The notes beneath the pieces were generated by a model. The model made no database searches. It saw only the letters and a list, made by a program, of their open reading frames with translations, and was not told the origin of the DNA. From the IMG/VR virus record IMGVR_UViG_3300017963_004517, positions 1 through 58,444 of that record: a stretch of 58,444 nucleotides of DNA; one strand, given 5' to 3'. Positions within the stretch are counted from its first letter, which is position 1; the number at the start of each line of letters is the position of its first letter. Of this stretch, positions 32,854 to 53,919 are shown in pieces. The position numbers and the translations under genes are program-made. The stretch is from a virus. Its lineage: Duplodnaviria > Caudoviricetes.

Positions 32854-32854
32854 T

Positions 32855-36245: not shown

Positions 36246-37979
36246 TTACTGAACAGATTCCAATAACGATAGTGCCACAGCAAGGCCTTCCAAGTCTTGC
36301 TGGTTTTTCTTAGGTTTTCCACTGATGACTGATACTACATCAGGAATAGGATCATGAATAATAGGCCTCTTGTAATCTTCTGAATCGCGATCCCAAAGTG
36401 ACAAAATCTCTTCGTCAGAATAACCTTTTTTTTGCAGATATTTGTAGTCTGATTCGCTCCACATGGGGTGAGATACTATTCGTTCTTTTATAGGTACTTT
36501 AGAAGCGGATTTTGAGCCGGCCCCCTTCCCACCGTGTATACTCTGCGGACTCCCAGACTTATGCGGACCAGGACCGTAGTGATTAGTTTTCATCCACTTG
36601 CCGTCCTCTTCTTTCCAGCCGGCGCGTTTCACCGCGCCCCAGGCGATCTTGGCAGCCTTTTCCTCGTCGTGCTCTTCCTTAGCCTTTTGGTAAACAGACT
36701 CCCAGAGATCCTTGCCCTCAGCCGGCAGGGAGCCGGTCACGTTTACTTTTAGGGATCTGGCCTTTATTAATTTTTCTTCAAAAGATTCGAGGGTATCGAA
36801 AACCTTATTGTACTCATCAGGATAATTCCCCTTCATGACCTCTTCACGCCCATATGATTCTGACAAAAATGCCGTCAAATCACTCCTGGCTGATCGCAGA
36901 GTATCAAGTTGTAGACCAAGAAACCTGCTCCCTTTTTTTGACAACTCTGATGCAGATAAATCGGAACGCTCTTTCAAACCCCGATAAACTTCGCGTGTCG
37001 ATTTTGGTAACGAAACCCCTCCAGCCTTCCCGGTCGTAGACGTAGAAGCGGATTTTGAGCCGGCACCCTTCCCACCATGCACACTCTGCGGACTCCCGTC
37101 CTTGTGCGGACCAGGACCGTAGTGGTTCTGTGCCACTTTGTGAACATAGCGCGTATCTTTGATAACCGGGATCCACTCCGGCTCGTCGTCAAAGTAGACC
37201 TTGCCACTGGCTGGGTTATAGGTATAGCCGACTTGAAAATAATCATTCCCGCGTCTGACGAACACATGCGTGTCGGTCGTTTCTTCGACATAAGACTCGA
37301 CAGGAACCGTAGTCTCGGATCCGAGCTCACTGGCGCGTTTATCGCGCACGCGCATCAAATCCGTGAATCCCTGCCGGATATCATCGAGGCGCTTCTCGTA
37401 AGTTCCAGGGCTGGCACTGTTGCGGTTCAACCCGCAGCCATCAGCCAGGGAGCAGGCTCCCGCCTCCTGGGTAAGCAGCGCGATGTGATCCGGGTGTATT
37501 TTCTGGTCAACATAACTGTAGTCACGCCCATTGAAATTGCCGGCCTGGGGAACAGACTCTGACCAATAGCCCGTCGAAGTCTCGACCTCTTGACTGTTAT
37601 CGATCCGCTCCAGGACCAGGGCAGCATCCTGATTATTCTCGTTGTCCCTCAACGACACGAGCAAATCCCTGTCCAGCCAATACTCGCCGACCAGACGACG
37701 CCCGTCCATTTTGGCATTATAGAACCGGCCAACCACAGGGACATCTGGATCCGGCACTCGGGCAGAGCCCCCGTTCTTTTTGGGATGGGGGAGCACTACC
37801 GGGATGTCGTTCCAATCGTTGACAAACGACCCGAACTCATCCGCCGGCACAAAACGCCCATTGAGTACACCCTCGACCAGGGGAACGCCGTTCACAACAA
37901 GCCACCGCTTGCCGGCGCGTTCCACCTCTCGGAAGGTGGGCAATAGGCGATTCGAGGCAAAAGCCAGTGATGTATCCAT
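36246..37979 (-). CDS. DUF2213-like prohead protease fused to a ChaB domain and two tagged cargo domains
   Basis: EGVLNG, PVV..HP, ETSTGY, PDHIALL..GACS..DGCG; ChaB-like LPAEGKDLW...AKIAWGAVKR; HYGPGPH tag twice. Confidence 0.8.
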   Translation of the reverse strand: MDTSLAFASNRLLPTFREVERAGKRWLVVNGVPLVEGVLNGRFVPADEFGSFVNDWNDIPVVLPHPKKNGGSARVPDPDVPVVGRFYNAKMDGRRLVGEYWLDRDLLVSLRDNENNQDAALVLERIDNSQEVETSTGYWSESVPQAGNFNGRDYSYVDQKIHPDHIALLTQEAGACSLADGCGLNRNSASPGTYEKRLDDIRQGFTDLMRVRDKRASELGSETTVPVESYVEETTDTHVFVRRGNDYFQVGYTYNPASGKVYFDDEPEWIPVIKDTRYVHKVAQNHYGPGPHKDGSPQSVHGGKGAGSKSASTSTTGKAGGVSLPKSTREVYRGLKERSDLSASELSKKGSRFLGLQLDTLRSARSDLTAFLSESYGREEVMKGNYPDEYNKVFDTLESFEEKLIKARSLKVNVTGSLPAEGKDLWESVYQKAKEEHDEEKAAKIAWGAVKRAGWKEEDGKWMKTNHYGPGPHKSGSPQSIHGGKGAGSKSASKVPIKERIVSHPMWSESDYKYLQKKGYSDEEILSLWDRDSEDYKRPIIHDPIPDVVSVISGKPKKNQQDLEGLAVALSLLESVQ

Positions 37980-38073
37980 AAAAATAGCGCGACTCCGGGT
38001 TTTTAATCCGAAGTCACGCTTCTGTGCTATTATATTAGCACAATAGGGTAAGAAATGTCAATCTACCAATGTA

Positions 38074-38295
38074 CTATACCTTGAGTCGTAAATTGACGTA
38101 ATCTATGCCAAGGCTGGTAAATAGATCGCGTTTCCGTGGATGAATCTTTGGCCGCTCGGCTGCGACGATGGCCTGGATCCGAGATTTAGACAACCCATAC
38201 TTGACCATCAAGTTCTCCATATTCATCTTGAGGCTATCTTGATAAATATTGCGATTCCTGTACTCGATGGCAATCGTCCTGGCTATCATGGCCAA
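38074..38295 (-). CDS. Mor/C-like small HTH regulator
   Basis: RNRNIY...NLMVKYGLSKSRIQAIV. Confidence 0.55.
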   Translation of the reverse strand: MAMIARTIAIEYRNRNIYQDSLKMNMENLMVKYGLSKSRIQAIVAAERPKIHPRKRDLFTSLGIDYVNLRLKV

Positions 38296-39080
38296 TACAA
38301 CTTTTTATAGCCTGCGAGAAGCAGATATGATGGATAGAACACTGGCTTCCGTGTGATAAGAGGGATAGGTACACCCTTGGTGAGACGGGGGAAACGGTTC
38401 ACGGCAAATGATCCATCAGGGAAATCCGGGTCTTTCAGGTCACCGGCCTTGATGATAGTTGCCCAACAAATGCGCCGGTCAGTCAGGATGTCAATGTCAC
38501 AATCATAGGGGATGTTGTTCTCCCACCCGTACTCAGTATTGGCAAGATGCCAGGTGTCTATGCACACGTTCGTGTTCGCTATCGTCCCGTTGTGAACATT
38601 GGATCCAGTGGTACGGATAGCATCGAAGCCAGGATCCTCGGATTCCAGATTCTCACCCGCTACCCAATTGGAAAGGGGAACTGAGTTTGGACCATAGCCG
38701 GTGCCGCGTGTGTTCCAAAACGCAACGCCGGCGCTATAGGTTCCGGTATACGCTCGCACAATGTGATCGTGCTGGTCAGCGGTCAAGAGCCCAGAGCGAG
38801 TCCCGTCCAGGTTGAACATACGATGCCCGTACTCGGACAGCGCCATCAGGTTGGCACAAAACCACTGCCCATGCCGATCCATCCTGACCGCATGGCTGTT
38901 CGTATGATTGGACTCTTCGCCGAGCAAAAACACATCAGGCGCACCGCCAAGCTCGATTGCCTTTGGCCTGATCGGATAGAACTCCCTGCTGCGAGGTGGG
39001 AAAAATTCTGGAGTAACCCAAAACCCATCTTGGGGAGGTACGGCCGGCTCATTAACCCGTACACTTATCGAGACTTTCAT
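38286..39080 (-). CDS. Hypothetical protein in the lysis module
   Basis: Coupled to the endolysin gene. Confidence 0.6.
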   Translation of the reverse strand: MKVSISVRVNEPAVPPQDGFWVTPEFFPPRSREFYPIRPKAIELGGAPDVFLLGEESNHTNSHAVRMDRHGQWFCANLMALSEYGHRMFNLDGTRSGLLTADQHDHIVRAYTGTYSAGVAFWNTRGTGYGPNSVPLSNWVAGENLESEDPGFDAIRTTGSNVHNGTIANTNVCIDTWHLANTEYGWENNIPYDCDIDILTDRRICWATIIKAGDLKDPDFPDGSFAVNRFPRLTKGVPIPLITRKPVFYPSYLLLAGYKKLYWP

Positions 39081-40906
39081 AGTTTTGTCAGGGTGCCCGT
39101 CACTGTTTTTGTGTCAGGTGCATAACCCTTGATCTCGATGGTCACGTCCACAGAATAACCTAAATCTCCAGGCTCTGGCTCTGGCGGATCTGGATCCGGA
39201 GGGGGTTCAGTGCCGCCGTCATAGGGATCGAGGTCGATATCCTTTATATAGCGATCGCCATTGGTAGGGTAACCAGAGACAATCTTGCGCATGCCGGCCA
39301 GCGGACCGGAATCCCAAAGCCAATCGCACTCGATCACCGTACTGGCCGGAATCGTTTCTCTGGGACTCCCGTTCACATTATATAGAGTCGCCTTTTTATT
39401 GGTTATGTATATTGCAGTAGGCACTGTCTCACCTCTTTCTTTAATCTCAAATCCAACATGATTGGCAACCGCGTGCAGCTTGTCGTCTGGTGGGTTGTTT
39501 TTTATCACCGGCACGCCGGCGCTATTTTTGAATATCAGGGTATTGGAGTCGCCGCCGTCCAGGTTGCCTCCCCATAGTGCCCCCAGAGACTTTGCGAAAT
39601 GAGCAAGCTCCAAACGGGTCAGGCCCTGGGTGCCGTCGTTGCGCCCGTCGATGGTTATCAGAATGTACTCGGTATTATTCCAGAATAACGCATTCCTCGG
39701 GTCAACAAAGATATTATCAACTCGAGGCCAGAGGCTGCGCACCCGGTCAACGAGGGTCGCCAGCCTGACTGACGCCGGCACAATCCCATCCAGCAGCAGT
39801 ACATCCGATATGCCAACCACGTTATAGGCCTCATCGTCGATGCCCCAGACCATGCCAATCGGCTGATGGTTGCGGTCGAATTGGATACTTACCTCGTCTA
39901 CTATTGTTTTTTCAATTTCCCCATCCGTCACGACTGGTGCGTAGGGCACCGGCGGAGATACGCTATAGTCCGCATGCCCCCCGTTGATCACGATATCCGG
40001 ATGGCCTCGGGTATTAAAGAAGTGCATTCCCGTACCATGGAACCCGAGCCCATTGACATGGATTCTCTCCACATCCGAACGGTTGAAGCGGGTCACATGA
40101 AAATTGAACGGCCGAGGCGAATCCCTGTGGCCACGGGTATACAGAACCTGGTCATCAAACCAGGACTCGACCACATCACCATCGGGAGGCTGAGGGGGAT
40201 CCCCGCCTCCAATCCAGGCCTGGAACTCATTCAGATTCCCGTTGTAAACGTTCTGATCGCACCAGCCGCCTGTACCGTGCATAGCCGGCGAGCCGGCTTC
40301 GCTGTACTGCCAGAGCACCCAATCCTTGCGGTTTGTGGGCATTGAGGGCAATTTATCCGGGCTGGGTGAGTAATAATATTGAGCAACCCAGAATCCATCC
40401 CAGGGAGCCTGTGTGAACACGTCCACGCCATACAGGCGCATGCAGGCCGGCCAGACCACAGAGTCGTACGTCGAGGGGTTGGTATAGAACAGCAGCCTGG
40501 CACCTGGATGCCATTCTTTCACAAAAGTCCCGAACTCCTGGGCCTTCTCGACAAACGCATCGTTCATCGTATTGTTGGCAGATTCGAAATCACAGACCAG
40601 GATGTCCAAATCCAGGTCATCTGTTGTAGCCAGGAAATGGTCGGCCTGACTCCTGCCACTCACGCCACTGCGCAGATAGTGATACGCTCCCAGCACAGGC
40701 ACCTTACCCAGAGCCGCGTCATAAAAATCGAAAAAGGATTGATCCACCCAGGATACCCCTTCGGTCGCCTTGAAAATAGCAAAGTCGATCAGACCAGGAT
40801 CGGCCTGGTCAGGATCGAACGACTCTTCCCAATGGCTGATGTCGATGCCATAAGCCCTGGGAGAGCCGGCGATCACTCGCTCATTGTGTTTATGGAATGT
40901 TGACAT
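39077..40906 (-). CDS. Endolysin: GH25 muramidase + phosphodiester-glycosidase (NAGPA/DUF2233-like) domain
   Basis: GIDISHWE, KATEG, GAYHY, DFE, WVAQY, LWQYS; then PRNA...IDGR..GLT..ELA...NLDGGDS. Confidence 0.85.
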   Translation of the reverse strand: MSTFHKHNERVIAGSPRAYGIDISHWEESFDPDQADPGLIDFAIFKATEGVSWVDQSFFDFYDAALGKVPVLGAYHYLRSGVSGRSQADHFLATTDDLDLDILVCDFESANNTMNDAFVEKAQEFGTFVKEWHPGARLLFYTNPSTYDSVVWPACMRLYGVDVFTQAPWDGFWVAQYYYSPSPDKLPSMPTNRKDWVLWQYSEAGSPAMHGTGGWCDQNVYNGNLNEFQAWIGGGDPPQPPDGDVVESWFDDQVLYTRGHRDSPRPFNFHVTRFNRSDVERIHVNGLGFHGTGMHFFNTRGHPDIVINGGHADYSVSPPVPYAPVVTDGEIEKTIVDEVSIQFDRNHQPIGMVWGIDDEAYNVVGISDVLLLDGIVPASVRLATLVDRVRSLWPRVDNIFVDPRNALFWNNTEYILITIDGRNDGTQGLTRLELAHFAKSLGALWGGNLDGGDSNTLIFKNSAGVPVIKNNPPDDKLHAVANHVGFEIKERGETVPTAIYITNKKATLYNVNGSPRETIPASTVIECDWLWDSGPLAGMRKIVSGYPTNGDRYIKDIDLDPYDGGTEPPPDPDPPEPEPGDLGYSVDVTIEIKGYAPDTKTVTGTLTKL

Positions 40907-41803: not shown

Positions 41804-42657
41804 TTCATCTCCAATCTGGGAGTGGAAATTCCTCGCCACTCTCGATAGGCTGCCAGGTTTTCAGGAAACAATAGCAGCATTCCCAGCCAGACCACTGCCC
41901 AGGTGTGCAAGGTCACGTAGGGAGCGAAAAACGGGGAGGAGGCAATAGCAAAGCGGAGATCCCGCTTCCATATCGCAACCCCCAGCAAGGCACATCCAAC
42001 AGGCACCCCGTAAGGGAACAGACTCGAGCTCCACCAAATGTCGACCAGGCCTGGAGATTTCGCCGGCCAAAACCCGAACAGGGCAAATGACAAAACAAGT
42101 GCCACGCTCACCGGAGTGACGACTCTCACGACCTGTCTGAACCCGCCCTCAATCCAGGCATCGATCACCCAGAATGCAGCCACGCCAATCCCGAACTGTG
42201 GCTTGCATAGGACAAAGAACAGGCCGGCCTGGGGAGGCAGCAGGAACCCCAGCACGACCAGACCTTCCACGTTCCCATTCCACGAGTTGAGCAGGATCCC
42301 AGAAAACAATACAAAAACGGTCAAAATAATTGCATTCATCCGCAGCTTGAAAGCAGCGAAGATATAACTATATAAATTTAGTATAAACATGACAGCCGTC
42401 CCCAGCGGAGCAGAAAGCAGCGCGATGGGGAGCAGGGGAAGTAACAGCCATGGGGGATTGAAAAAGCCCGAGTCCGCGTAAGGTGACCGGCCGGCCAGCA
42501 GGTCCAGGGCAGCCGGCCGGAATGAATACTTCCAATCAACCCCCAGATTGGGCAGGCCTTCGGTGGTCAACTCCATCTGAACGGGGAGGTGGGTGTACAC
42601 GTAATAGACTCCCAGAGCGAACAGGGCAATGAATAAAAGAACTCGTAAGCCCCTCAC
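41800..42657 (-). CDS. GT-C/GT87-like integral membrane glycosyltransferase
   Basis: DW...GRSPY...FFNPPW, GNVE, KPQ; multiple TMs. Confidence 0.75.
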   Translation of the reverse strand: MRGLRVLLFIALFALGVYYVYTHLPVQMELTTEGLPNLGVDWKYSFRPAALDLLAGRSPYADSGFFNPPWLLLPLLPIALLSAPLGTAVMFILNLYSYIFAAFKLRMNAIILTVFVLFSGILLNSWNGNVEGLVVLGFLLPPQAGLFFVLCKPQFGIGVAAFWVIDAWIEGGFRQVVRVVTPVSVALVLSFALFGFWPAKSPGLVDIWWSSSLFPYGVPVGCALLGVAIWKRDLRFAIASSPFFAPYVTLHTWAVVWLGMLLLFPENLAAYREWRGISTPRLEMK

Positions 42658-42839
42658 TTTTTCACCTCCTCGTTGATCGCAAGCAAGTCGTTCAAGAGAT
42701 TATTGAACCGCGTCCAGATCTCATCCCACCTCGCAAACTCAGTCTTATAATCGCCATTAGGACAGATGATATAATCCCCATCTTTGGCCAGATACTCCCC
42801 ACAGACTGGACACAAGCCGGCTCTCTTTTCATCAGACAT
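42654..42839 (-). CDS. Small Zn-ribbon protein
   Basis: CPVCG...ICPNG; first 9 aa identical to those of the GNAT gene. Confidence 0.6.
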   Translation of the reverse strand: MSDEKRAGLCPVCGEYLAKDGDYIICPNGDYKTEFARWDEIWTRFNNLLNDLLAINEEVKK

Positions 42840-43353
42840 CCTCGCCTCCACTTGGAAATAATAACTCATATTCGCGTTTTCCGCTCTGACCTGTTCTTAT
42901 CAGTTTTCCAATCTGCTTTTCTCTTTGTAGTTTTTCGGTCAGGGCTAGTCCACCCTCGGAGGTGGGGAATATGTTCACGGTTTTCATTCCCTTACTCCTA
43001 AGAATTTCAAGCGCCTCAACGGTTACAGCGTATCCAGAGCCGCGCCGCCTGGATCCTTCCGCGACCTCAGTATAGAAAATCTCACCTCTAGTGGGAGAGG
43101 TTCGGTCATTCGTAAAATCTGCCTTGATAAACCCCAGAACTTTGGCATCCCCGTTTCTAATCTCAAAATTTTCAGGGCTTCCGGCTACCCCCCAAGTTAC
43201 ACTTGAGTCTTTTCTTAGATTTGGGGAGTAAGATGTTTTAGACTTTCCCCCGCCATGCACGCTCTGTGGACTCCCGGATTTGTGCGGACCAGGACCGCCG
43301 TGCATAAGAACCATTCGAATACGCTTCAAGCCGGCTCTCTTTTCATCAGACAT
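42832..43353 (-). CDS. Tagged GNAT acetyltransferase
   Basis: HGGPGPHKSGSPQSVHGG tag, then EIFYTEV.EGSRRRGSG acetyl-CoA motif and TSEGGLAL. Confidence 0.7.
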   Translation of the reverse strand: MSDEKRAGLKRIRMVLMHGGPGPHKSGSPQSVHGGGKSKTSYSPNLRKDSSVTWGVAGSPENFEIRNGDAKVLGFIKADFTNDRTSPTRGEIFYTEVAEGSRRRGSGYAVTVEALEILRSKGMKTVNIFPTSEGGLALTEKLQREKQIGKLIRTGQSGKREYELLFPSGGEDV

Positions 43354-43594
43354 CCTGCACCTCCTCCACGACTGCAACGACTTCACGGACCGGAGTCGCA
43401 ACCAACAGATTCCTGGCGCCGGCAGAGCGGAGGTGGTCGGTATTGATAATACACTTCACCTTGCGCTTGCCATCCAGCCGCCGGCCCCGGATGGGCACCA
43501 ATTCGATGGAGCGGGTCGCAGGGTTGTAGATGAAGAGCAGGTGACCCTCGTCGTCCACGACTCTGATCATGCCGTTCTGATTTTCGTCGCTCAT
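43346..43594 (-). CDS. Hypothetical protein
   Basis: Start overlaps the MuF stop codon. Confidence 0.55.
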   Translation of the reverse strand: MSDENQNGMIRVVDDEGHLLFIYNPATRSIELVPIRGRRLDGKRKVKCIINTDHLRSAGARNLLVATPVREVVAVVEEVQDV

Positions 43595-45015
43595 CGAAAC
43601 TCCAATCCACAAAGGCAATGCGATAAACAAGTCGCCTCGCCAATAGGAACCATGTCGGCAATCGGCACCCAGCCAAGCTGGAATAACTCAACGCACCCAG
43701 GCCGGCTCGAGTCTATGCAGTGCTCTTCGTTCGGCCCCAGGACTCTCCGGGCTTCCCGATAGCCGGCATCCTCAGCCACGCGCATGCGCTCGTTCTCGTA
43801 GATCGCATTCGCAGCCCGGGCATACATGCCGGCACGCACAACCGCGAACCCGTTCAATGGCTGCGCACCCGACTCGATCTCTGCCAGGAAATTGTCGAGC
43901 CAGCGGTAGTGTGGACGCATCCGCCAGCCAAACCTTGAAACATGAGACCGGTCGTAGTTTTCCAGACCCCCGATGGAGGCCAGGTAAGCCGCCCGGTATT
44001 CCTGTTTCATGATTGATCGCATCGCATCGTACCACTGCTGCCGGCTGATCTCGCCGTTCACCAGCCTGGCCGTGAGATCCCGCAGGTCACGCTGCACAGC
44101 ATTGGCAACCCGCTGGACTCCCATCTTGATCCGGAAGTCAGGCACCCGCCGGCCGGCGACCACGTAACGCCAGACTCCCGTGCTATGGTCGAAAAAAATC
44201 TCGGCCAGCCGGCGAGCGTTTTGAAAAACGTTCAAGCGAATGACCCTGAACGATGGAGTCTCTCTTTCTATTACTACATAGCGAGCATCTAGAAGTTCTC
44301 CAAAGTCCGTCGACACAAATGCTGCCGTTCCTGTCAAGGCGCTGCCGGCGCTCCAGTCTACGCGCCACATATAATCCATTTTGTCATTATCGTACAATCT
44401 TTGGATCCGGCGCAAAGTAGGAACGTCCAATTCATTAGTCGTGATGGATAGCGCAAACCTTCCCCTTCCATAATCATCAACGCCTATACGGATCCAGCCA
44501 TTCTCGAGTAGGTATGCCCTTCTACTGGATAAGGTTGTCCCTTTTGAATAATCGACCTCGTATCCGCCGGCTCTTATAACTTCCCGTTCAAAATCCATGT
44601 GTCCCTGCGGAGCTCGATAAACGTCATTATCTGGAGATACATAGAACTCATTGTGCTCTCCCTCACCGAAAATCTTATCGACCAGATAACCCAGGTCTGG
44701 ATCGATATCGAGCCTCTGTTTTGTTTCCGAACCATCTCCGCCGGCATGCACGCTCTGCGGCGTGCCCGTGCCTGGGTGCGGTCCAGGGCCGTAGTGCTGT
44801 TGCTTGACCAAAATCAAAGGCCGGGTTTCCAGCAGCCCCGGGATCCCAGAATGCTTATCCCACAGGTCAATCGTATCCTGGAGATCGTCAACATTCTCCA
44901 GCCACTCCTGGAGCTCATCCTCGGTCCAACGCCGGATGGGAATATTGTCGTCATCCGTGTAACGCCGGCGAGCCGGAAGGTCTAGGATCTGGGGGAGTGG
45001 GCTGGGAAAGGTCAT
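43591..45015 (-). CDS. MuF/gp7-like head morphogenesis protein with an inserted tagged domain
   Basis: C-terminal RAGMYA...EHC...C...P.G..C...CLC; N-terminal HYGPGPHPGTGTPQSVHAG tag followed by a ...H...NGWIRI domain. Confidence 0.7.
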   Translation of the reverse strand: MTFPSPLPQILDLPARRRYTDDDNIPIRRWTEDELQEWLENVDDLQDTIDLWDKHSGIPGLLETRPLILVKQQHYGPGPHPGTGTPQSVHAGGDGSETKQRLDIDPDLGYLVDKIFGEGEHNEFYVSPDNDVYRAPQGHMDFEREVIRAGGYEVDYSKGTTLSSRRAYLLENGWIRIGVDDYGRGRFALSITTNELDVPTLRRIQRLYDNDKMDYMWRVDWSAGSALTGTAAFVSTDFGELLDARYVVIERETPSFRVIRLNVFQNARRLAEIFFDHSTGVWRYVVAGRRVPDFRIKMGVQRVANAVQRDLRDLTARLVNGEISRQQWYDAMRSIMKQEYRAAYLASIGGLENYDRSHVSRFGWRMRPHYRWLDNFLAEIESGAQPLNGFAVVRAGMYARAANAIYENERMRVAEDAGYREARRVLGPNEEHCIDSSRPGCVELFQLGWVPIADMVPIGEATCLSHCLCGLEFR

Positions 45016-45383
45016 TCCAAAAAAGTCCTTACAAAAAGAGTGTAAGATTGAGGCTCTTTCAGCGCACCATCAGGGTGAGGATCGTGAAATACCTCTCCGT
45101 TCCGGCCAACAACACTGTGATGGAAATCTCCATTCTTGCTGGTTCCATTGATTATGTGGTAACCCGTCGGCATGATCCCGCCGGCCTCGCAAGATTCAAT
45201 CGTCACGTCAATCGGATACAACTCAAATTTATAGATGCACCAAATCGTGAAGTTTTCATACCAGTCTGAACGATTCCCAAAGTCGGGTACATTATCTATG
45301 GGAATCTCGAAAATAGACGCCAAGCAAGCCGCTAGGCAATTGCCGTCTGGATAACCGAATTTGGTCTGGTCGGTTGGAATCAT
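45012..45383 (-). CDS. Conserved phage protein, possible papain-like (C39) peptidase fold
   Basis: Q...GNCLAACLAS, H.VV, HDP. Confidence 0.55.
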   Translation of the reverse strand: MIPTDQTKFGYPDGNCLAACLASIFEIPIDNVPDFGNRSDWYENFTIWCIYKFELYPIDVTIESCEAGGIMPTGYHIINGTSKNGDFHHSVVGRNGEVFHDPHPDGALKEPQSYTLFVRTFLE

Positions 45384-45610
45384 TTCAAAGACGCCTTTAC
45401 TTTCTCAACTTCTTCCTGTTGAATCTCGGTGTAATTTTCATCGCCACCTATTCCAAAATGAGCAATCAACTCCGGGTCATCGATCCACTTGGAACCATCC
45501 CATCTTTCAGAGATAACCTTGTCTTTTTCAACGCTCCACCTATGCAGAGATCGGATGGTCTCTTCTTCGCCCTTTTTCCCTTCATATGTTTTTCTGACGA
45601 GATACTTCAT
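45380..45610 (-). CDS. Putative immunity protein for the portal-fused RelA/SpoT domain
   Basis: 76 aa; ATGA overlap with the portal stop; ERWD..KW.DD...G....TEI..EEVEK. Confidence 0.55.
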   Translation of the reverse strand: MKYLVRKTYEGKKGEEETIRSLHRWSVEKDKVISERWDGSKWIDDPELIAHFGIGGDENYTEIQQEEVEKVKASLK

Positions 45611-47817
45611 TTCACAACTCCTGGCAAGGCCTGCCAATTTACAGGACGTTCCAAATCATTCCACATAGATGACATCTCTCTAGCCAACTCTAACCGCTTT
45701 GCGTCGTTGGCGTCTAGCTCCCTCCATATCTCGTAGATTTTATGAACATTCCTTTTTATTGTCAGGGAATCTTCCGTGTGATATTGGATCTCGAACCTGA
45801 AACCGGTTTTCTCGTTCACCATAACGGTATTGTATCCGGCATACTCTCCACCAGGTTTGAAAAAGTTTTTCCATTTGTGATCGTATTTTTTCCAGCCGTC
45901 CCTGGCAAGGTCGGTCTGAACCTCTTTGACATCCTCAACGAACGTTTCAGGATTGAAAACCAGGGTATAACGGAGAGAGTCGTTTATTTGGAGAGCCGCC
46001 TCCTCTGGAGTGATCCCCATCTGCTCTGAGTCTATCCTTATTTTCCTGGAAAGACTAGCCGCTGTTTTGAGTTTATTGTCAAGCCCAACCAGTCTCCCGC
46101 CGGCCTTATCTGCAATTCTTTGAAGAGTAGAAGTCACCTCCGGCTCCGCCTTGGCTGCTTCCCTGATCTTGGTCTTGACCGCTTTCTCGATGTTAGACCG
46201 TGCGCCAGCCCCTTTACCTGGAGCAAAACCGCCGCGCCTGCCCGGTCTGCCTTTATGGCCTTTGTGACCAGAGCCCGGCCCACCGTGAGTCTTGAGAACT
46301 TCTTTCATTTGCCCTAAGTCAAACTCCTCGGGATTGGGAGCGAAGCCCCCCGAACCGTTCCCGTCGCCGGCCTGTGGGGGAGGAAACTTGTTGCCCTGCC
46401 CCATGGCCTTCTCTTCCTTGTCGGCCTGCTCGCGTTTCATGGCAGGAGTCCAAACAAAATTCAGGTAACGTTTGGCAAACTCCTCGGGAGGCATGATTGT
46501 CTCGGGAGCACCGCCGGAAGCTGTGCTCATCGCCTGGGCAGTCTTGACAGCCAGGTCGGCCTTTTGCATGTCGTTCAGTTCAATCAGGGACGGCCAATCA
46601 ACAAAATACTCCTCCGGGAGATCCAGAATCCCGAGCTCATCGCATCGATCCAGGAACGGCCGCAGGATGTAAGGCTCTGCAAAATTTCGCCGGCGAGCGT
46701 CGATCAGGTCCGAGAAGTTGTCATCATCTTGCGAGCTCGCCAGTTCACCGCGTTCGGACCCCAGCAGCCGACGCTGCGGGATTCCTTTTGATCCAGAGAT
46801 ATATTCGATGATCACATCGAACTGCTCACGCGAATCCACGGGATGACCTCCAAGCTCCTGGACATCCAGACCCCGGGCGCGAATGACCCGGCGGAGGTTG
46901 TGTTCCCACTCATCCCACTCGTCCTGCATAGCCTCGTACTCATCCGAGTCTTTCGATGGCAAAGTAAACCCTTCCATTGCTTTGAGCACCACCCCTTGAT
47001 AAATGAGTTTCCAGTAAGCCTCAGACCCGCCCCCGACTACCTTCTCGAGATCCCAAAAGCGGTTAATTATGTTTTTCAGGCCAGGGACGCCATACACGCG
47101 CCCCAGCCCCCCACCCCTCTGCCGGCCTTGCTTGATATGGATGACGCGGGAATAGTGGACCCGCCTGGAAAGTTCCCCTTGATCATCGATAACGATTTGA
47201 TAATACTCCGGCAGTCCGAATCTATTGGACTCCGGGTCTTTTACGATGCTGGTCTCATCTACCGTGGCATTGCCCTCGTCACACGTAATGACATAAGCCA
47301 ACTGGCCGGCCTTGCCTTTTATCTCGTCCTCGGGCCGGCCAGGCAACCCCAGGTAGAGCAGGGAAAACCTGGAGATCCCCAGCATCCGGTCGGCCTCAAG
47401 GAACTGAGCCCATAGATCGTGACTCTTTACTAACTCTTTGAATCTCTCTTGAATTGGACCGGGCTCGGCCTTTTCGTCCTCGGCCTTTTCCTCGCTCTCG
47501 AATAAAATTGGATGTTTACGCCAGGTCTCATCGCTCACCAAATCAACCACACGAGTCCCTATTCCATCACGCTCGTATATGTTGAGATAATCGGAATACT
47601 CTGGGTCTAGCTTATAGCCAAGCGTCTCATAGAGTTTTCGGTCACCATCAAACGACTGACCCAGCGCACGGCCAAGGCCGGCGCGACTCAAACGGGATAG
47701 ATAAGAATTCAACTGTATTGCGTGATCAAGCTGCCGACTAGTTGCATTGAGTTTTTTTTCCAGGTCGGCCTTAGTCCCCGCTCGCGGTTTCTTGGTTCCT
47801 TTTGGTTGATTAGCCAT
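45607..47817 (-). CDS. Portal protein (DUF1073-like) with C-terminal RelA/SpoT-like nucleotidyltransferase
   Basis: YERDGIG.RVVD, FGLPEYY, VHYSRVI, GIPQRRLLG.ERGELASSQD; tail has KLKT..SL.RK, DSLRY, YAGYN, EIQYHT. Confidence 0.85.
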   Translation of the reverse strand: MANQPKGTKKPRAGTKADLEKKLNATSRQLDHAIQLNSYLSRLSRAGLGRALGQSFDGDRKLYETLGYKLDPEYSDYLNIYERDGIGTRVVDLVSDETWRKHPILFESEEKAEDEKAEPGPIQERFKELVKSHDLWAQFLEADRMLGISRFSLLYLGLPGRPEDEIKGKAGQLAYVITCDEGNATVDETSIVKDPESNRFGLPEYYQIVIDDQGELSRRVHYSRVIHIKQGRQRGGGLGRVYGVPGLKNIINRFWDLEKVVGGGSEAYWKLIYQGVVLKAMEGFTLPSKDSDEYEAMQDEWDEWEHNLRRVIRARGLDVQELGGHPVDSREQFDVIIEYISGSKGIPQRRLLGSERGELASSQDDDNFSDLIDARRRNFAEPYILRPFLDRCDELGILDLPEEYFVDWPSLIELNDMQKADLAVKTAQAMSTASGGAPETIMPPEEFAKRYLNFVWTPAMKREQADKEEKAMGQGNKFPPPQAGDGNGSGGFAPNPEEFDLGQMKEVLKTHGGPGSGHKGHKGRPGRRGGFAPGKGAGARSNIEKAVKTKIREAAKAEPEVTSTLQRIADKAGGRLVGLDNKLKTAASLSRKIRIDSEQMGITPEEAALQINDSLRYTLVFNPETFVEDVKEVQTDLARDGWKKYDHKWKNFFKPGGEYAGYNTVMVNEKTGFRFEIQYHTEDSLTIKRNVHKIYEIWRELDANDAKRLELAREMSSMWNDLERPVNWQALPGVVK

Positions 47818-47821
47818 AGAT

Positions 47822-49255
47822 TCACCTTCCAAATGTGCCGGCAACTCGAGGGCCGACTAATTCATTATAGCATCCCGACGCCGCGTCGACAATATCATCA
47901 TGGTACTGTGGATCCGGGAAATTGTGCAACTGCGCCAAAAACTCCTCGTTCCAAGAGCCGGCCAGCAGTTTGACATTTCCAGCAAAGGCCTGGGATGCCA
48001 ACGGCTTCGCACGCAAAACCTTGTCGCCGGCACCCGCCACCGGGATACCCATCACGTCGAAGCCCTGCATTCCTGTGACCACGTTGTAAGCATCCCGAAC
48101 GCCAGACGCCCCGCCCTCCTGTTCGAACCGGACCGCAACCTTCAACCCCCCAGAGTTGTCCTGGGTCGCAGTATTGAAAACAGCATTATTGGCCTCAGCC
48201 GGACTCATGCGCTCGTTGGACATATCCAGGATATAGGTTATCCCGTCCACGATCTTGCCCTTGACCGAGGCTGTGTAATCCGGGTCATCCTTTTTCTTGG
48301 TCGTGCCCAGGCTCTTCTTGGTCGCCGCGAAATCCCAAAAACGCACCATGCGTCCGCCGGCCGGCACGGCCGGCACGATCTCGAACCAGGCCCGGTTGAA
48401 CACCAGGCCGGCCTCCGGTTTGATTTTCCAGTTTCCGCCGCGCCTAGCATCCCCGAGCAGCCGCTGCCGGTCCACCAGGGGAAGCGCCTGCAAGTTGGCC
48501 AGGTAAGCCGGATCCTTAGACAACAGAATCTCATTATCGTAGACTGTGGAGAGAATGAAGGTCACCGATTTGGGCAATGACCCCGGGAACTTTTCCTGCA
48601 ACTCACCTGGAGTGTCAGCCCAATGGATCTGGTCATTCTCGTTGACCATCCAACGGATAACCCCAGATCGCTCAGGGATAGCCCAGCCCTCGTCGTCGAT
48701 CCACCAGGCCAGGAAATCGGCCAGCCAGCCAGGCTCCGGATTGGCACTGGCTCTCACATATGGCTTGACCCCGCACATCGACCGGTTGCGGGATAGCATG
48801 TAGAAAAACTGCGACTGTGTGAAGGTCTCAAGTTGGTCGAACTCAAGCAACGGAACCTGGGCGCTTTTCCAGGCCTCCTTGTCCTGTTCTCGCTGCATGT
48901 GAGAGAATGAGATATTCGAGCCGGCAGGGAACCGGTAACGCTTGTCGTTCTCGTTTGGCCGGCCACCCAGATAGGGATAGATATCGCCGGCCTCATCCCA
49001 TAGAGCACCCTCATGGGTGATCTCCGGGATAGTACGCCGGAAGATGACCGCGCCAAAACCTGGATTGGAAATATGACGAAGAGGCTCGACCAACAGGCTC
49101 CAGGTTTTGCCCCCGCCGGCGGCGCCACCATAGATGGCAATGTCAGCCGACGAGGCATGGAACTCAGCCTGCCTTGGTTGAGGGACTACTACAAAGTTGT
49201 CAGGGTTGGATAGTTGAGTCTGTACGGCTCGATCAACATCAGTTTTTGTCAGCAC
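47822..49255 (-). CDS. terL: Terminase large subunit
   Basis: YGGAAGGGKT, ASANP, WDFAAT, DYTA, HDDIVDA. Confidence 0.95.
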   Translation of the reverse strand: MLTKTDVDRAVQTQLSNPDNFVVVPQPRQAEFHASSADIAIYGGAAGGGKTWSLLVEPLRHISNPGFGAVIFRRTIPEITHEGALWDEAGDIYPYLGGRPNENDKRYRFPAGSNISFSHMQREQDKEAWKSAQVPLLEFDQLETFTQSQFFYMLSRNRSMCGVKPYVRASANPEPGWLADFLAWWIDDEGWAIPERSGVIRWMVNENDQIHWADTPGELQEKFPGSLPKSVTFILSTVYDNEILLSKDPAYLANLQALPLVDRQRLLGDARRGGNWKIKPEAGLVFNRAWFEIVPAVPAGGRMVRFWDFAATKKSLGTTKKKDDPDYTASVKGKIVDGITYILDMSNERMSPAEANNAVFNTATQDNSGGLKVAVRFEQEGGASGVRDAYNVVTGMQGFDVMGIPVAGAGDKVLRAKPLASQAFAGNVKLLAGSWNEEFLAQLHNFPDPQYHDDIVDAASGCYNELVGPRVAGTFGR

Positions 49256-49751: not shown

Positions 49752-50609
49752 TCAGTTGTGCTGTGGGATCCGCTTGGGGTTGTGATACCCGGCCGGCAGG
49801 AATGGCTGCAGATCCTTTTTGAAGTAGTGCACTATCCCCAGGTCCTGGCATAACTCCATCATTGCCTCGGTGTAGGATTTCCAGTCCGTTGTATTGGTCA
49901 TGGGCAGGTAGTTAGCCCGGCCAATCTTGAAGAGATCCACAAACTCGTGAGTCTCTTTGATAATCTGCAGGCTGGCCTCTGTGCTCAGGGTAGGCTCCAG
50001 GGATACCCAGGTAAAAATGCCGGCCTCGTGGAAGGTTTTCAGGGTATCGATCCTGTCCTGGGGGAGGGCTGCTGCGCGTTCCCACTTTAGGGAGAAGGTA
50101 TCATCCAGAGAAGTGAGAGTCGAGGCGAAGGCGTCCCGGTCCGGCCGGAAGAGCTCCAGGTAGGGCAGGGCTCGGGAGCCGCCTTTGGTCAGGGTACAAA
50201 AGGCCAGGCCGTGATCGACCAGGGTTTCGATGGTAGGACGGGTCAAACTTGTGTCCAGTGGATTGAAGGGATCGGTCGTGAAACTGAGCATGACCTGGGA
50301 CGTGGATCCAAGCGCCTGGTATTTCAAGGCATCCTTTTTGAGATTGGCCAGGAAATTCGGGCGAGGGGAGGCAGCGGCATCGAACTGCGGTCGGGACATC
50401 CGCAAGACAGCCGGCACGTAGCAATACGCGCATTTATGGCCACATCCCCGGTATGGATTGGTTGCCAGCGGAGCGTACTCGCCGGCCTGCCCTTTGGGAG
50501 CATAGATATATGAACAACCTTTTACGGATACTCCGTCCGGGTTGAATTGAGGCGCCGGCCCCGAGTAGGGAGCCGGAGTCTGGTCAAATAGGTTTGGTTG
50601 TGAAGTCAT
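49752..50609 (-). CDS. Radical SAM protein (SPL-like clade)
   Basis: NPYRGCGHKCAYCY, SFTTDP, LTKG, WVSLEP. Confidence 0.9.
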   Translation of the reverse strand: MTSQPNLFDQTPAPYSGPAPQFNPDGVSVKGCSYIYAPKGQAGEYAPLATNPYRGCGHKCAYCYVPAVLRMSRPQFDAAASPRPNFLANLKKDALKYQALGSTSQVMLSFTTDPFNPLDTSLTRPTIETLVDHGLAFCTLTKGGSRALPYLELFRPDRDAFASTLTSLDDTFSLKWERAAALPQDRIDTLKTFHEAGIFTWVSLEPTLSTEASLQIIKETHEFVDLFKIGRANYLPMTNTTDWKSYTEAMMELCQDLGIVHYFKKDLQPFLPAGYHNPKRIPQHN

Positions 50610-50969: not shown

Positions 50970-51851
50970 CTAAATATTCTGGTAAGCATTTTGCAGAGCC
51001 AGGGATGCCGCCTGGCATTCCTGAACCTTGAAATTTTTTCCGAGCTTTTGCCATTCGAGAGCCGCAGTGTTCCAGAATTCGATCAACTTCAAAATGGTAT
51101 CTCCGGGAGTGTCTCCCTTTAGGTCTGGGGTGACCGTCGAGGGAGTCGGCGGGGATGAAAAGTCAAGCTGACTGGCCGGCACTTCCTGGACCACCCACAA
51201 AGGCTCCTCGAACATCTTGGCCTGGTGCTGCTGGGTTGCGTATTCGCTCACCAGCCGGCGAAACCAGCCGGTTGTCGGTTTCGGGTTCTTGCGAAGAGCA
51301 GCCACTGCCAGGCTCTGACGGTTCGGATCCAGGTTGGCCGAGGCCAGGATCTGGGCATACCCGAGTTTCAAATTATCCGTGCGGACCAGGTGCTGCAAGT
51401 CCTCGCGCAGGGTCAAGAGCTTGAGTCTGTATTGTACCCGCACATCACTCACGCCGGCTCGTTTTGCGCATTCTGCGACCGTCCAGCCCAGACGCTCGAT
51501 CCGGTGCAAATAGGCGTTGGCTTCGTCGATGGGGTCTAAATCTGAGCGGGATACGTTCTCCGAGAGCATGATCGCCGAGGCATCTTCGTCTGAAAGTTCT
51601 TTGACGATAGCCGGCACGGTTTCCCAGCCCAGGGAACGGATAGCCCGAAACCGTCGCTCGCCGGCGACGATCTCATATTCAGCCGCATCGCTCAAGCTGG
51701 ATGGGGCAGGGCGGACTGTGATGGGTTGGATCAGGCCGTTCTTTTCGATGTTATCAGCCAGGTCCTGGAGATCCTCTTTGTCGAAGATCGTCCGGTCGTT
51801 ATTCCCAGGGAGTATCTGATCCCATGGGATTTGGTGAACTTTTTGGGTCAT
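50970..51851 (-). CDS. ParB/Spo0J-family protein
   Basis: GLIQPITVR, IVAGERRFRA, ENVSRSDLDPIDEA, HTH. Confidence 0.9.
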   Translation of the reverse strand: MTQKVHQIPWDQILPGNNDRTIFDKEDLQDLADNIEKNGLIQPITVRPAPSSLSDAAEYEIVAGERRFRAIRSLGWETVPAIVKELSDEDASAIMLSENVSRSDLDPIDEANAYLHRIERLGWTVAECAKRAGVSDVRVQYRLKLLTLREDLQHLVRTDNLKLGYAQILASANLDPNRQSLAVAALRKNPKPTTGWFRRLVSEYATQQHQAKMFEEPLWVVQEVPASQLDFSSPPTPSTVTPDLKGDTPGDTILKLIEFWNTAALEWQKLGKNFKVQECQAASLALQNAYQNI

Positions 51852-51888
51852 AGCGCCTCCTAGATTAGATGGATGGTCTTACAAGGTA

Positions 51889-51922: not shown

Positions 51923-52462
51923 TTACAGATTGAAAAAGCCGTAGTATTTCCTCCCGTGGTTTATGTAAGTCACCTGCTCAACCCCTCGCAAGGCCAGGAA
52001 TTCCCTGAACTTTTGCCAGCCATTTCGGGAGCACAGGATAGGGGATTTCTCGATCATCGTCCGGCTGAACCCGATCTCTTCCAGCATATCCCAGGGAAGC
52101 TGGCCGGCGAAAGATTTAATGAACGTAAAGAATACCAGGCCGTGATAATCCCGCTCGAAGAGGATTTTGAGTTGAGCATAGGGGACCCCGTAAGAGTCCA
52201 GGTCGATCACGTTGTAAACCGAGAGATTCAAAGCTGTCAAAAAACGGGTGTTATCCCCTACCAGGTGGAATCCGCCTTTGTTCTTTTCCTTTTCTATTGA
52301 CAAGGTTTTTATGTTTTTGTCAGGGTTAGATTCCTTGACCATCTTCCAGATCGTGCCCTCGCCGGCGAAGCAATCCAGGACCACGGCCGGATCCGGGAGG
52401 TGCCGGCTGCGCAAACTGACCTTATCCTGGAGGTGGGCATTATCCGTTTTAATTTGCCCCAT
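51923..52462 (-). CDS. Methyltransferase-like protein
   Basis: VLDCFAGEG.IW, VIDLDSYG.P. Confidence 0.65.
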   Translation of the reverse strand: MGQIKTDNAHLQDKVSLRSRHLPDPAVVLDCFAGEGTIWKMVKESNPDKNIKTLSIEKEKNKGGFHLVGDNTRFLTALNLSVYNVIDLDSYGVPYAQLKILFERDYHGLVFFTFIKSFAGQLPWDMLEEIGFSRTMIEKSPILCSRNGWQKFREFLALRGVEQVTYINHGRKYYGFFNL

Positions 52463-53114
52463 AGTCCACCTCAACCCCCTCGATCAGTTGTATCTGGTCG
52501 ACCAGGTCCGTGACAAAAACGGCCGCATCGATAGGGAAGCTGATCAATACCCTGGCCATGGTATAGGGAGTCAGTTGCTCAGTTTGCTCGAAGCCCTGGA
52601 CGCCGTCCATGCCGTCGGATCCCATTTCCTCCAAAAAAAGCAAGACATCCTGGTCGTCTGTTTCAATCTGCTCGAGCAATTTGTCGACATTGTCCTGGTC
52701 TGTTTCGGCCAGGGCTGCAATGGCATCCAGGGACAAAAGAGCCTGGGCCTCTTCCGCTTCTGACAGGTCTACATGGATGTACGGGACGTATCCATCCCCG
52801 TGCCTGAGAGCGTTCAAGACTCTTTCGTGCCCATCTATCAGGTTGCCGGTTCGTTTATTCTCGAGAGCAAATTGAATCCATCCCAGGGAGTTGAGGGATC
52901 CCTCGACCGCGCTTTGTTGCTTGGGGGGATGCTTTCTCCAGTTTTTCGGATGCTCTTTGAACTGGCTGGCTCGCTTGGCGCCGAATCCAATGATCAGCAG
53001 CCGGCGATCTCCAATCTTGACAAACGAGTCGCGGACATCCTGGGGGACTTCCGTGTACCATAATTCGTTGGTATTTTTTGCCTTTGATTTTGGTTTGGCG
53101 TCTGGCATGGTCAC
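52449..53114 (-). CDS. ParB/Srx-like N-terminal domain protein
   Basis: HPKNWRKHP..Q, SL..LGW, LIDGHER. Confidence 0.75.
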   Translation of the reverse strand: MTMPDAKPKSKAKNTNELWYTEVPQDVRDSFVKIGDRRLLIIGFGAKRASQFKEHPKNWRKHPPKQQSAVEGSLNSLGWIQFALENKRTGNLIDGHERVLNALRHGDGYVPYIHVDLSEAEEAQALLSLDAIAALAETDQDNVDKLLEQIETDDQDVLLFLEEMGSDGMDGVQGFEQTEQLTPYTMARVLISFPIDAAVFVTDLVDQIQLIEGVEVDYGAN

Positions 53115-53138
53115 CTCTTATGCCTAGTATAGCACAAT

Positions 53139-53164
53139 GAAAAAGAGACCCGTCAGGGTCTCTT
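53139..53164 (-). terminator. Intrinsic terminator
   Basis: AAGAGACCC/GGGTCTCTT stem with a U-tract on the minus strand. Confidence 0.65.
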
Positions 53165-53184
53165 GGAGATGGGATCACCTCCTG

Positions 53185-53361
53185 TTATTTTTCTTTGGCC
53201 CGTAACTTTTTCCAGGCCTCTCGAAGCTCTTCGTCAGAGGAATATTTTTCCTCCGGGATTCCTAATTTCTTAGACATCTCGCGGATGAATTTTTTGTATT
53301 CCTTGAAGGATCTTGTTGACGGCTTGCCGTAGTGTACTGTATTTTTCTTTTGTTTTGCCAT
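53185..53361 (-). CDS. 58-aa basic protein, possible partner of the upstream tagged enzyme
   Basis: MAKQKKNTVHYGKP...REAWKKLRAKEK; AGGAG RBS; below the ORF-track cutoff. Confidence 0.55.
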   Translation of the reverse strand: MAKQKKNTVHYGKPSTRSFKEYKKFIREMSKKLGIPEEKYSSDEELREAWKKLRAKEK

Positions 53362-53370
53362 TTCATACTC

Positions 53371-53919
53371 CTAGTCATGAAATTCTGGGGCTTGACCTTT
53401 TGGCCAGACCGTTTTTATTGATTTGTCATTTAGCAAATCATAAAATTCTCGTTGCTTGTGCTTTACTCCCAGGGAGTTGGCCTCCTCGATGGTCTCAACC
53501 GGGATGCTTACGTCAAGATAGATATTTCCATCTTCCGTATTGAACCAGCCTCCGAAGTATTTGTCATCATCCTTTAGAAGATCCCAATTTTCATCGACAT
53601 AATCTGACAGGTCTTTTTCTGTGATGTCTTTGGCCGGGATGATCTTGCTCCGTTCGGCATAGGGTGAAACGATAAACCCGACAGCGGCGGCGTGCTCTTC
53701 TAAAACTGGCTGGTATGAAAATCCGCCTTTCTCCAGTAAATGATCCCGCAGGGATTTGTACTTTGATGGCTTCGATGTCTTTGACGGCTTAGATGATTTT
53801 CTGCCTCCGCCTGGAGCAGAGCCGCCACGCTGGCCAGGCCGGCCCTTGTGTCCTTTGTGACCGGAACCCTTGCCGCCGCTCAGTACAAGTTTCATTCGCT
53901 CCAGGTTTATTTTGTTCAT
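53371..53919 (-). CDS. Tagged protein with a putative SAM-lyase-like domain
   Basis: GGKGSGHKGHKGRPGQRGGSAPG tag; GGFSY...GGW...YLDVS...A...G..KQ..YDL; TATAAT 6 nt before ATG suggests a leaderless mRNA. Confidence 0.55.
   Translation of the reverse strand: MNKINLERMKLVLSGGKGSGHKGHKGRPGQRGGSAPGGGRKSSKPSKTSKPSKYKSLRDHLLEKGGFSYQPVLEEHAAAVGFIVSPYAERSKIIPAKDITEKDLSDYVDENWDLLKDDDKYFGGWFNTEDGNIYLDVSIPVETIEEANSLGVKHKQREFYDLLNDKSIKTVWPKGQAPEFHD

Follow-up and report, generated by a model that had tools for sequence, protein, structure and literature searches.

The internal proteins of phage T4 carry a short capsid targeting sequence that is removed by the prohead protease. Encapsulins load cargo through short peptides that are portable, lie at the C-terminus of the cargo and direct diverse enzymes into an HK97-fold shell. 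Here we describe a Gly/His-rich peptide motif, the tag, which occurs six times in a 58,444-nucleotide (nt) virus record (IMG/VR IMGVR_UViG_3300017963_004517; Caudoviricetes), analysed as this one stretch and called the window below. Two described groups of phage proteins come closest. The polyvalent proteins (Iyer, Burroughs, Anand, de Souza, Aravind, 2017, PMC5512222) are presented in the main text of that paper with a repertoire of RelA/SpoT-like, GNAT, ADP-ribosyltransferase (ART), ParB, RadC and 2H domains, with effector fusions to MuF and portal proteins, with solo versions and with virion and packaging gene neighbourhoods, and it is proposed there that they are packaged, injected and processed proteolytically by their own peptidases. 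According to a preprint (10.64898/2026.04.10.717836), a 2811-residue polyvalent protein was detected in virions of phi24B. The MuF polymorphic toxins, as described in the texts of PMC5576092 and PMC12226406, place a variable effector on a head-internal protein encoded beside the portal; they include the Apk2 adenosine 3'-pyrophosphokinase toxins, which form (p)ppApp (PMC12226406) and whose group includes MuF C-terminal domains homologous to the portal cargo described below. Effector domains fused to MuF or portal are already known, as are solo versions and polyvalent proteins; a conserved junction motif at the head of the cassettes appears to be new.

The window shares with the polyvalent proteins the presence of at least two unrelated domains per polypeptide (portal plus kinase, protease plus two modules, MuF plus one module), and it differs from them in that its domains are divided among portal, protease, MuF and solo genes instead of being joined in one giant protein, and in having no zincin metallopeptidase, a domain that is frequent, though not strictly defining, in the polyvalent family. 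As in the MuF toxins, where immunity genes follow the effector, a small gene follows the kinase domain; unlike in them, the kinase is carried by the portal and not by MuF, and the MuF module lies N-terminal to the core, so that the MuF core is C-terminal. Word searches found no mention of the junction motif in the main text of PMC5512222 or in that of PMC5576092, and searches of the open literature with tag sequence strings returned no relevant paper.

All six tags lie on the minus strand, in frame and within long open reading frames (ORFs). A six-frame regular-expression scan of the window, together with the translations, recovered each of them where the first-pass annotation had placed it, and no seventh copy anywhere in the window. 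Tag A, searched as H[YG]GPGPH..G[ST]PQS[VI]H[GA]G, has four copies: two in the 577-residue prohead protease ORF (A1, 37074-37124, core 37077-37121, NHYGPGPHKDGSPQSVHGG; A2, 36531-36581, core 36534-36578, NHYGPGPHKSGSPQSIHGG), one in the 474-residue MuF-like ORF (44743-44796, core 44746-44793, QHYGPGPHPGTGTPQSVHAG) and one near the N-terminus of a GNAT-like ORF (43252-43302, core 43255-43299). Tag B, searched as GG.GSGHKGHKGRPG.RGG.APG, has two, one in the portal (46216-46287, core 46240-46275, HGGPGSGHKGHKGRPGRRGGFAPG) and one near the N-terminus of ORF 53371-53934 (53809-53878, core 53833-53868, GGKGSGHKGHKGRPGQRGGSAPG). With at most 3 mismatches a 21-nt core of tag A gave 4 matches, compared with a mean of 0.00 in 100 dinucleotide shuffles. 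In a repeat search, A1 and A2 with their linkers form an 85-nt repeat of 89% identity and the two B tags a 69-nt repeat of 75%.

The first-pass annotation had treated A and B as two separate tags. Both patterns are indeed present, but they can be aligned with each other and have an upstream pattern in common (hydrophobic-V-E-R-[HG]-x-G-P-G), and on this alignment they are variants within one motif family. The consensus of tag A in 94 non-identical instances is [RK]-H-[YLFG]-G-P-G-P-H-..-G-[ST]-x-Q-x-[VI]-H-[GA], with the [RK] in 74%, the first His in 100% and the second Pro in 76% of them, and that of tag B in 17 non-identical instances is V-E-R-G-G-P-G-S-G-H-x-G-H-x-G-R-P-G-x-V-G-G-S. The 29 aligned copies of tag A agree without exception at H, G-P-G, H, G, Q and H, and the invariant G is always followed by Ser or Thr; the loci were retrieved through the tag patterns, so that the pattern-matched copy at each locus is a biased one. 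The constancy of H, G-P-G, H, G-[ST], Q and H would point to selection on the peptide. The tag is about 17-23 residues long with eight invariant positions, is not covered by any Pfam, PHROGs or NCBIfam model, and was modelled by AlphaFold as a coil when taken alone, with a mean predicted local distance difference test (pLDDT) value of 63. Two readings of single stretches of it were discarded: an AT-hook in tag B (KGRPGRR), as most B tags read GRPGEVGGS, with an acidic residue, and Ni-assisted cleavage at [ST]-x-H, as Asp is frequent at that position.

Five of the six tags lead into a Gly/Ser/Lys linker. The short basic/Ser linker that had been ascribed to every tag does not extend to MuF, where the linker is neutral to acidic. 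The segments behind the tags have a GC content of 0.40-0.49, as against 0.54-0.60 for the protease, MuF and portal cores and 0.526 for the window, in agreement with the AT-richness claimed for the cargo, and because they are AT-richer than the cores of their carriers the cassettes look foreign.

The arrangement of the prohead protease (577 residues, 36246-37979, minus strand like all genes between 34 and 55 kb) makes the placement of the tags clear. Its DUF2213/phrog_760-like core (residues 1-283) is followed by tag A1, a linker, a helical module of about 95 residues, a native ChaB domain (residues 413-464), tag A2, a linker, a module of about 65 residues and a native C-terminal tail (NQQDLEGLAVALSLLES). 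Alignment with the tag-less relatives P0162 and P0165 reveals two insertions, with tag A1 opening the first and tag A2 the second. Three different linker sites hold insertions in the window protease and its homologues P0164 and P0163, with a tag at the start of each insertion and none at the end, and the order of the modules around the tags is permuted between the window protease and that of G001, a complete relative introduced below. Neither of the two inserts matched a known family, and a PDB sequence search with the protease gave no match. The conserved end of the protein (36249-36300, minus strand) reads (Q/H)(D/E)LEGLA followed by a hydrophobic stretch; it recurs in the homologues P0162-P0191, in tagged and untagged members, and may be a procapsid-docking tail.

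The portal gene (745 residues, 45607-47844, minus strand) encodes a portal core up to about residue 483 (Phage_portal_3, phrog_146), a linker, tag B at about residues 517-543 and a C-terminal domain at about residues 546-745 (45610-46209; GC 0.48). The C-terminal domain matches PDB entry 8vx3 ('SaSAS') with an expectation value (E) of 1.9e-18 over 182 residues and the C-termini of MuF 'head morphogenesis' proteins (phrog_7625) with E = 1.2e-28; it is homologous by tblastn to the MuF C-termini of Streptococcus, Mannheimia and Pasteurella phages. It is also 43% identical to a module of the 2337-residue polyvalent protein P0045, where the module is preceded by a tag A and not, as here, by a tag B. 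By these matches the portal cargo is a predicted RelA/SpoT-like pyrophosphokinase, and it is the sole firmly assigned cargo of the window. Over its last ~200 positions, the NCBIfam model for XopAD/skwp type III effectors matches this domain too, with E = 1.4e-29 and far below the full-length cut-off of the model, and the same type of domain may end these large effectors. Directly after the portal, and overlapping its stop, lies a gene of 85 residues (45380-45637, minus strand) whose product has 35% identity (E = 1e-15) to the module right after the homologous kinase module in P0045, so that kinase and partner appear to travel together, fused in P0045 and split here. Its product is a candidate partner, regulator or immunity protein of the kinase.

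The MuF-like gene (P0002, 474 residues, 43591-45015, minus strand) begins with a conserved N-terminal leader domain (residues 1-72) and tag A (residues 73-92), continues with an inserted module, 'domain X' (residues 93-264; 44224-44739; GC 0.47), that has no family match, and ends with the MuF core (residues 265-474; match to phrog_24776 at residues 270-473). Two further cassettes are stand-alone genes. P0005 (53371-53919, minus strand; probable start MNKINLERM) encodes a leader, tag B, a Lys/Ser/Pro linker and a domain of 140 residues (GC 0.45), for which structural comparison gives only a lead to nucleoside deoxyribosyltransferase-like clusters (template modelling score, TM, 0.62). P0006 (173 residues, 42832-43353, minus strand) encodes a 17-residue leader (MSDEKRAGLKRIRMVLM), tag A, a Lys/Ser linker and a domain that had been called a GNAT. 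The gene does stand alone, whereas the domain is borderline GNAT-like: it scores 18.9-19.9 bits with Pfam Acetyltransf_1, for which the cut-off is 20.7 bits, and a single-sequence AlphaFold model (mean pLDDT 42) was unusable. The claim of six different effector-like domains was likewise too strong. Inserted modules follow the tags, but so do the native ChaB domain, the native protease tail and the MuF core, and only the portal cargo can be assigned firmly.

The P0006 cassette also carries the single clear footprint of insertion. Perfect 30-nt direct repeats bracket a 484-nt insert: each copy includes a stop codon, a ribosome-binding site, an ATG and 9 codons (MSDEKRAGL). The upstream copy (43327-43356, minus strand) thereby ends the preceding gene and starts the GNAT-like one, and the downstream copy (42813-42842, minus strand) holds the last codons and stop of the GNAT-like gene and the start of the next gene (42654-42839). 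The gene junction is duplicated, which provides the cassette with start and stop codons; the insert took its start from the next gene and its stop from the previous one. The footprint lies outside the tag.

Comparison with relatives shows similarity that runs through the tag and is then lost. The MuF orthologue P0158 has 70% identity in leader and tag and 83% in the core, and the ~170 residues between them are unrelated. P0006 and P0007 are 86% identical over leader and tag and continue with a GNAT-like domain and with ParB_N, respectively, and the leader motif L-x-[RK]-[IM]-[RK]-x-V-L is kept across unrelated cargos. Homology of the portals stops in or near the tag in L003 (residue 537), which has a tag A and a different C-terminal domain; in L011 it goes no further than the portal core (residue 480). 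The PDB sequence search found no match for the L011 portal extension and only matches of E >= 0.11 for the L003 portal cargo, and the labels '2H-like' and 'GNAT-like' for these two cargos therefore go back to motifs seen by eye. In L002, whose large terminase and portal are 94% and 75% identical to those of the window, two tagged genes lie between terminase and portal; L001 has one at this place and the window none. The large terminase of L003 (L003:3-1322) itself seems to have an intein-like insert of ~300 residues after '...DD', from C to HN then C (by eye).

The complete relative G001 (L016; 60,180 nt, syntenic, with terminal repeats) has five tags. One is in the P0005 orthologue, where tag B and domain are both retained (48% identity), MuF has two, each ahead of a module that looks ART-like by eye, and there is one each in the protease and in a RadC-like gene. 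The latter is a stand-alone tag B gene (record positions 32840-33484) with an HNHP motif seen by eye and no counterpart in the window; it lies in the tail module, between homologues of 27263-27640 and 24324-27263 of the window, so that not every tagged gene belongs to the head module. In L012 a domain homologous to that of P0005 sits behind a tag A. These alignments place the start of the exchanged unit at the tag. The insertion sites used in the window are the portal C-terminus, the prohead protease (twice) and the MuF leader/core junction, together with two gene junctions where the cassettes stand alone behind short leaders.

The first-pass annotation had further proposed that the DNA of the tags doubles as a recombination anchor, and a related explanation would deny the peptide a specific role: the tag would be a tolerated flexible linker, left as a scar where conserved DNA moves cassettes by homologous recombination. 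For tag A, DNA identity at the codons of identical residues is 0.95, 0.92 and 0.85, compared with 0.73-0.75 expected from codon usage (P <= 0.0125), the left breakpoints of two swaps (P0158; P0006/P0007) are at the tag, and the modules are permuted around the tags of the two proteases. The two B tags, on the other hand, are at chance level (0.78 against 0.75, P = 0.29) in spite of 21 identical aligned residues, the residues of the motif stay the same even in distant contigs, a sign of selection on the peptide, and the 30-nt footprint lies elsewhere. An anchoring role of the DNA is thus suggested for tag A and not for tag B, and we consider it improbable that the tag is a mere scar.

The tags are not confined to this phage and its close relatives. 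A pattern scan of a viral contig collection confirmed 15 of 40 matched stretches (14 loci), and one of metagenome contigs confirmed 46 among at least 596 matched stretches (44 loci). In the 57 loci examined, 120 tags are distributed over 73 tagged ORFs, and every one is on the same strand as the pattern match. Several proteins have 5-10 tags each (P0024, P0033, P0040, P0045, P0068, P0104), as do ORFs in L013 and L030, and both tag types are sometimes found in one protein. The spacing between tags has a median of 193 residues (n = 47, range 88-1175), which equals one domain, and a domain follows every tag seen; no tag was found at a C-terminus. RadC, GNAT, ParB_N, 2H and DRAT domains (Pfam) are present in six multi-tag proteins. 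Among the 118 post-tag segments compared with Pfam, ADP-ribosyltransferase was matched by 5 (other ART models by 4 and 2), GNAT by 5, Zeta toxin by 3, and Macro, ParB_N, SAM lyase and PI3/4-kinase by 1 each, while most segments matched nothing. Such cargo is characteristic of the polyvalent proteins of PMC5512222, to which the multi-tag proteins belong in kind. With the six of the window added, BLAST sorts the resulting 124 segments into 66 clusters, of which 43 have a single member; segments that extend into the MuF core inflate the largest one. The claim that the tags are portable and carry variable cargo is borne out by this diversity as well as by the swaps and the tag-headed insertions in the protease.

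In 34 of the 63 ORFs with a complete 5' end there are at most 60 residues ahead of the first tag. The Pfam families matched among the 23 pre-tag segments of at least 110 residues are Phage_portal_3, Phage_portal_2, Phage_Mu_F, DUF2213, Peptidase_S78_2, ChaB, 2H and DRAT, and 13 of the 16 PHROG families matched (families, not segments, being counted) are portal, head morphogenesis, minor head protein or head maturation protease; the other three are unlabelled. For the 139 untagged neighbour ORFs, 17 of the 25 commonest PHROG families are terminase, portal, head morphogenesis, minor head or protease. The association with head genes that had been claimed from the window is thereby upheld: carriers that can be named are head proteins or have known polyvalent-type domains, and the neighbours are mostly terminase, portal, MuF and protease. 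Judged by their positions, the tags are a conserved junction motif of phage 'polyvalent' effector proteins, and the mobile unit is the tag with a Gly/Ser/Lys linker and one domain.

The tags probably help to load or release injected proteins. The best explanation overall, to which we give a little less than an even chance, is that the tag is a release site at which the polypeptide is processed, rather than a pure packaging signal. The carrier, or the short amphipathic leader in stand-alone genes, would take the cargo into the procapsid, where the polypeptide would be cut at the tag during head maturation, most simply by the prohead protease and in polyvalent proteins perhaps by their own metallopeptidase domains (an HExxH motif was seen by eye in P0013, P0024, P0033, P0040 and P0068). 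Each freed domain would then exit with the DNA through portal and tail. Several observations favour release. Modules inserted into carriers that are already head-bound still keep their tag. The tag precedes almost every domain of the polyvalent proteins, which fits a release or junction function better than targeting; for such proteins processing has been proposed before (PMC5512222), and one of them was detected in virions (the phi24B preprint). A domain comes after each tag seen, whereas more than half of the ORFs with a complete 5' end have at most 60 residues ahead of the first one. The portal core ends at about residue 483, before tag B and the kinase, and a portal-borne kinase needs release, as otherwise it could not act in the new host. 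The earlier proposal that the tag itself is an encapsidation signal is in part unlikely as stated, considering that four of the six tags are inside proteins that enter the head anyway and that the closest protease relatives are tag-less. The repetition of a conserved motif between functional units of a long polypeptide recalls the cleavage sites of viral polyproteins, but the tag is unusually long and His/Gly-rich, and the likeness is one of general concept only.

It is also possible, though we think it unlikely, that the tag docks without being cleaved, binding together with the preceding hydrophobic or amphipathic stretch to the inner capsid, the scaffold, the portal or the DNA, in which case any domain with a tag would be kept in the head and several tags would provide multivalent anchoring; this is in essence the reading of the first-pass annotation. 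In its favour, the two stand-alone genes of the window, like more than half of the complete survey ORFs, have just a leader of at most 60 residues and the tag before the domain, the leader motif recurs ahead of unrelated cargos, most tags of this lineage are followed by basic Lys/Ser linkers, and the capsid protein is HK97/encapsulin-like (Linocin_M18, E = 1.2e-16). As in encapsulin cargo, a short portable peptide adjoins a Gly-rich linker; the sequence differs, however, and the tag is ahead of the cargo and never C-terminal. A per-domain address would be redundant, given that most tags are in head components or between domains of one polypeptide, a kinase that stays attached to the portal would be undeliverable, and binding to DNA is disfavoured by the acidic or neutral post-tag linkers outside this lineage. 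Release at the tag leaves room for some docking in stand-alone genes, where the short conserved leader and the tag may also act in the manner of the T4 targeting sequence. There, too, a short N-terminal peptide stands before unrelated cargo, a likeness that holds for stand-alone genes only (P0006, P0005 and the 34 survey ORFs), and proteolytic removal at maturation is what our favoured model would predict. The two differ in that there is no sequence likeness and in that the tag is longer, has its eight invariant positions and is also found internally and repeated.

Several observations weigh against release by cleavage at the tag. Cleavage, packaging and ejection are all things that we infer from sequence. 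Eight invariant positions over ~17 residues exceed the needs of most protease sites, and the predicted coil would suit a plain linker as well as a cleavage site. The tag is not needed at every junction, as the MuF module meets its core without an intervening tag and the portal of L011/G001 has another C-terminal extension without a canonical tag. The closest relatives of the protease (P0162, 78% identity) are plain protease-ChaB-tail proteins without tags, and only 12 of 64 protease homologues have strict tags; the tag is not the habitual cleavage site of this protease, since it is missing from the other 52, from the major capsid protein and from the neighbouring small head genes. The metallopeptidase route is unavailable in the window because no HExxH motif was found in any chosen ORF there. 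Prediction of a complex between the protease core (residues 1-285, 65-row alignment) and the tag (29-row alignment) gave a score of 0.02 (mark 0.32) and weighs neither way on binding.

As the eight invariant positions include three His and a Gln, there is room for metal-dependent or self-acting chemistry. The three His and the Gln would bind a metal and the tag would cut itself, for example at the invariant G-[ST], or switch conformation, with no protease involved. This would agree with the invariance of H, H, G-[ST], Q and H in the 29 aligned and 94 non-identical copies, with the occurrence of the motif beside at least two portal and two protease families (DUF2213, Peptidase_S78_2), with HExxH domains present or absent, and with the tag-less state of most relatives of this protease. 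But tag B is devoid of the G-[ST]-x-Q..H half and some B copies keep one His (GSGNFDHAGRPG in P0045), the tag has no predicted fold, and we know of no precedent for a self-cleaving peptide of ~20 residues of this kind. We regard such a motif as quite improbable.

A peptidase could also be encoded next to the tagged genes. The gene at 45012-45383 (123 residues, phrog_5845, minus strand), between portal and MuF, might specify a C39-like cysteine peptidase that cuts the tags after Gly-Gly in the manner of bacteriocin leader peptidases. An atlas feature match (rank 25, score 0.94) led to a cluster with Peptidase_C39 in 15% of its members, structural comparison gave TM 0.64 and 0.60 to C39_2-bearing clusters, a Cys and later His residues are spaced papain-style (by eye), and several leaders end in H-G-G or S-G-G. 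Yet the product has no Pfam match and no close relative in the viral contig collection, and most tags read H-Y-G and not G-G. The gene has no homologue in any of five tag-bearing records, the complete G001 with its five tags and four others, which rules it out as a general tag peptidase, and cutting of the tags by its product is very unlikely. Release at the tag, whether the head protease or a His/Gln/metal chemistry of the tag itself brings it about, can be combined with the cassette structure into a fuller proposal, which is conceivable but doubtful: the tag would be a universal, portable load-and-release element of uncultured virulent phages, in which any domain behind the tag, on a head protein or after a 15-residue leader, is loaded, cut free and injected, and anti-host effectors are traded as tag-headed cassettes.

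The packaging and head genes (small and large terminase, portal, MuF, protease and capsid protein) form one minus-strand block at 34-50 kb. Read along the minus strand, the order is P0005, a ParB-like nuclease, ParB, a radical-SAM protein, small terminase, large terminase and portal, followed by two small genes, the MuF-like gene, a gene of 94 residues, the GNAT-like gene and a gene of 61-71 residues, and then by two genes of no assigned function, a GH25+NAGPA lysin, another such gene, the prohead protease, two small genes and an HK97/encapsulin-like capsid protein. The major capsid protein (34161-35147, minus strand) matches DUF6260 (E = 1.1e-22) and the encapsulin family Linocin_M18, each of which fits it better than does the phage Major_capside model. 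The small terminase is immediately preceded by the radical-SAM protein (49752-50609), a full ParB with ParB_N and HTH_ParB (50970-51851) and the ParB-like nuclease domain protein (52449-53114), all on the minus strand and all kept in G001 at 60-69% identity. The lysin (609 residues, 39077-40906, minus strand; Glyco_hydro_25 and NAGPA, a phosphodiester glycosidase) is found within the head module, in the interval from MuF to protease, beside four genes without family. Its GH25 domain indicates a bacterial host; the best matches of the portal among deposited viruses are haloarchaeal, at about 28-32% identity.

A megablast of 36-54 kb against the phage collection gave no match. A 41-residue tag query matched nothing by tblastn in 50,697 phage records, and P0045 and P0068 matched through their domains only; the BLAST low-complexity filter may mask tags, so that this null result says nothing about tags in cultured phages. 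Word-index homologue searches with the tag region, in an index that requires several shared words, returned 2 proteins and 1 protein only. A profile search of protein representatives drew in the ParB domain through the full-length P0007 row, and most of the 150 matches listed are ParB_N, only 15 of the 150 having strict tags. In 185,579 species genomes one pattern scan confirmed 0 loci and a second one 1, and the tagged system therefore appears to belong to non-integrating, uncultured and probably virulent phages, to which it seems to be confined. This distribution differs from that of the MuF toxins, which the texts cited above tie to temperate phages.

How the domains of polyvalent proteins are delimited, released and exchanged has not been described before, and the motif bears on each of these questions. 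It provides a search key with which metagenomes can be screened for injected phage effectors, the majority of them outside any known family, and a defined site at which proteolytic maturation can be probed. If the load-and-release reading is true, the tag would also be a candidate handle for loading chosen proteins into phage capsids.

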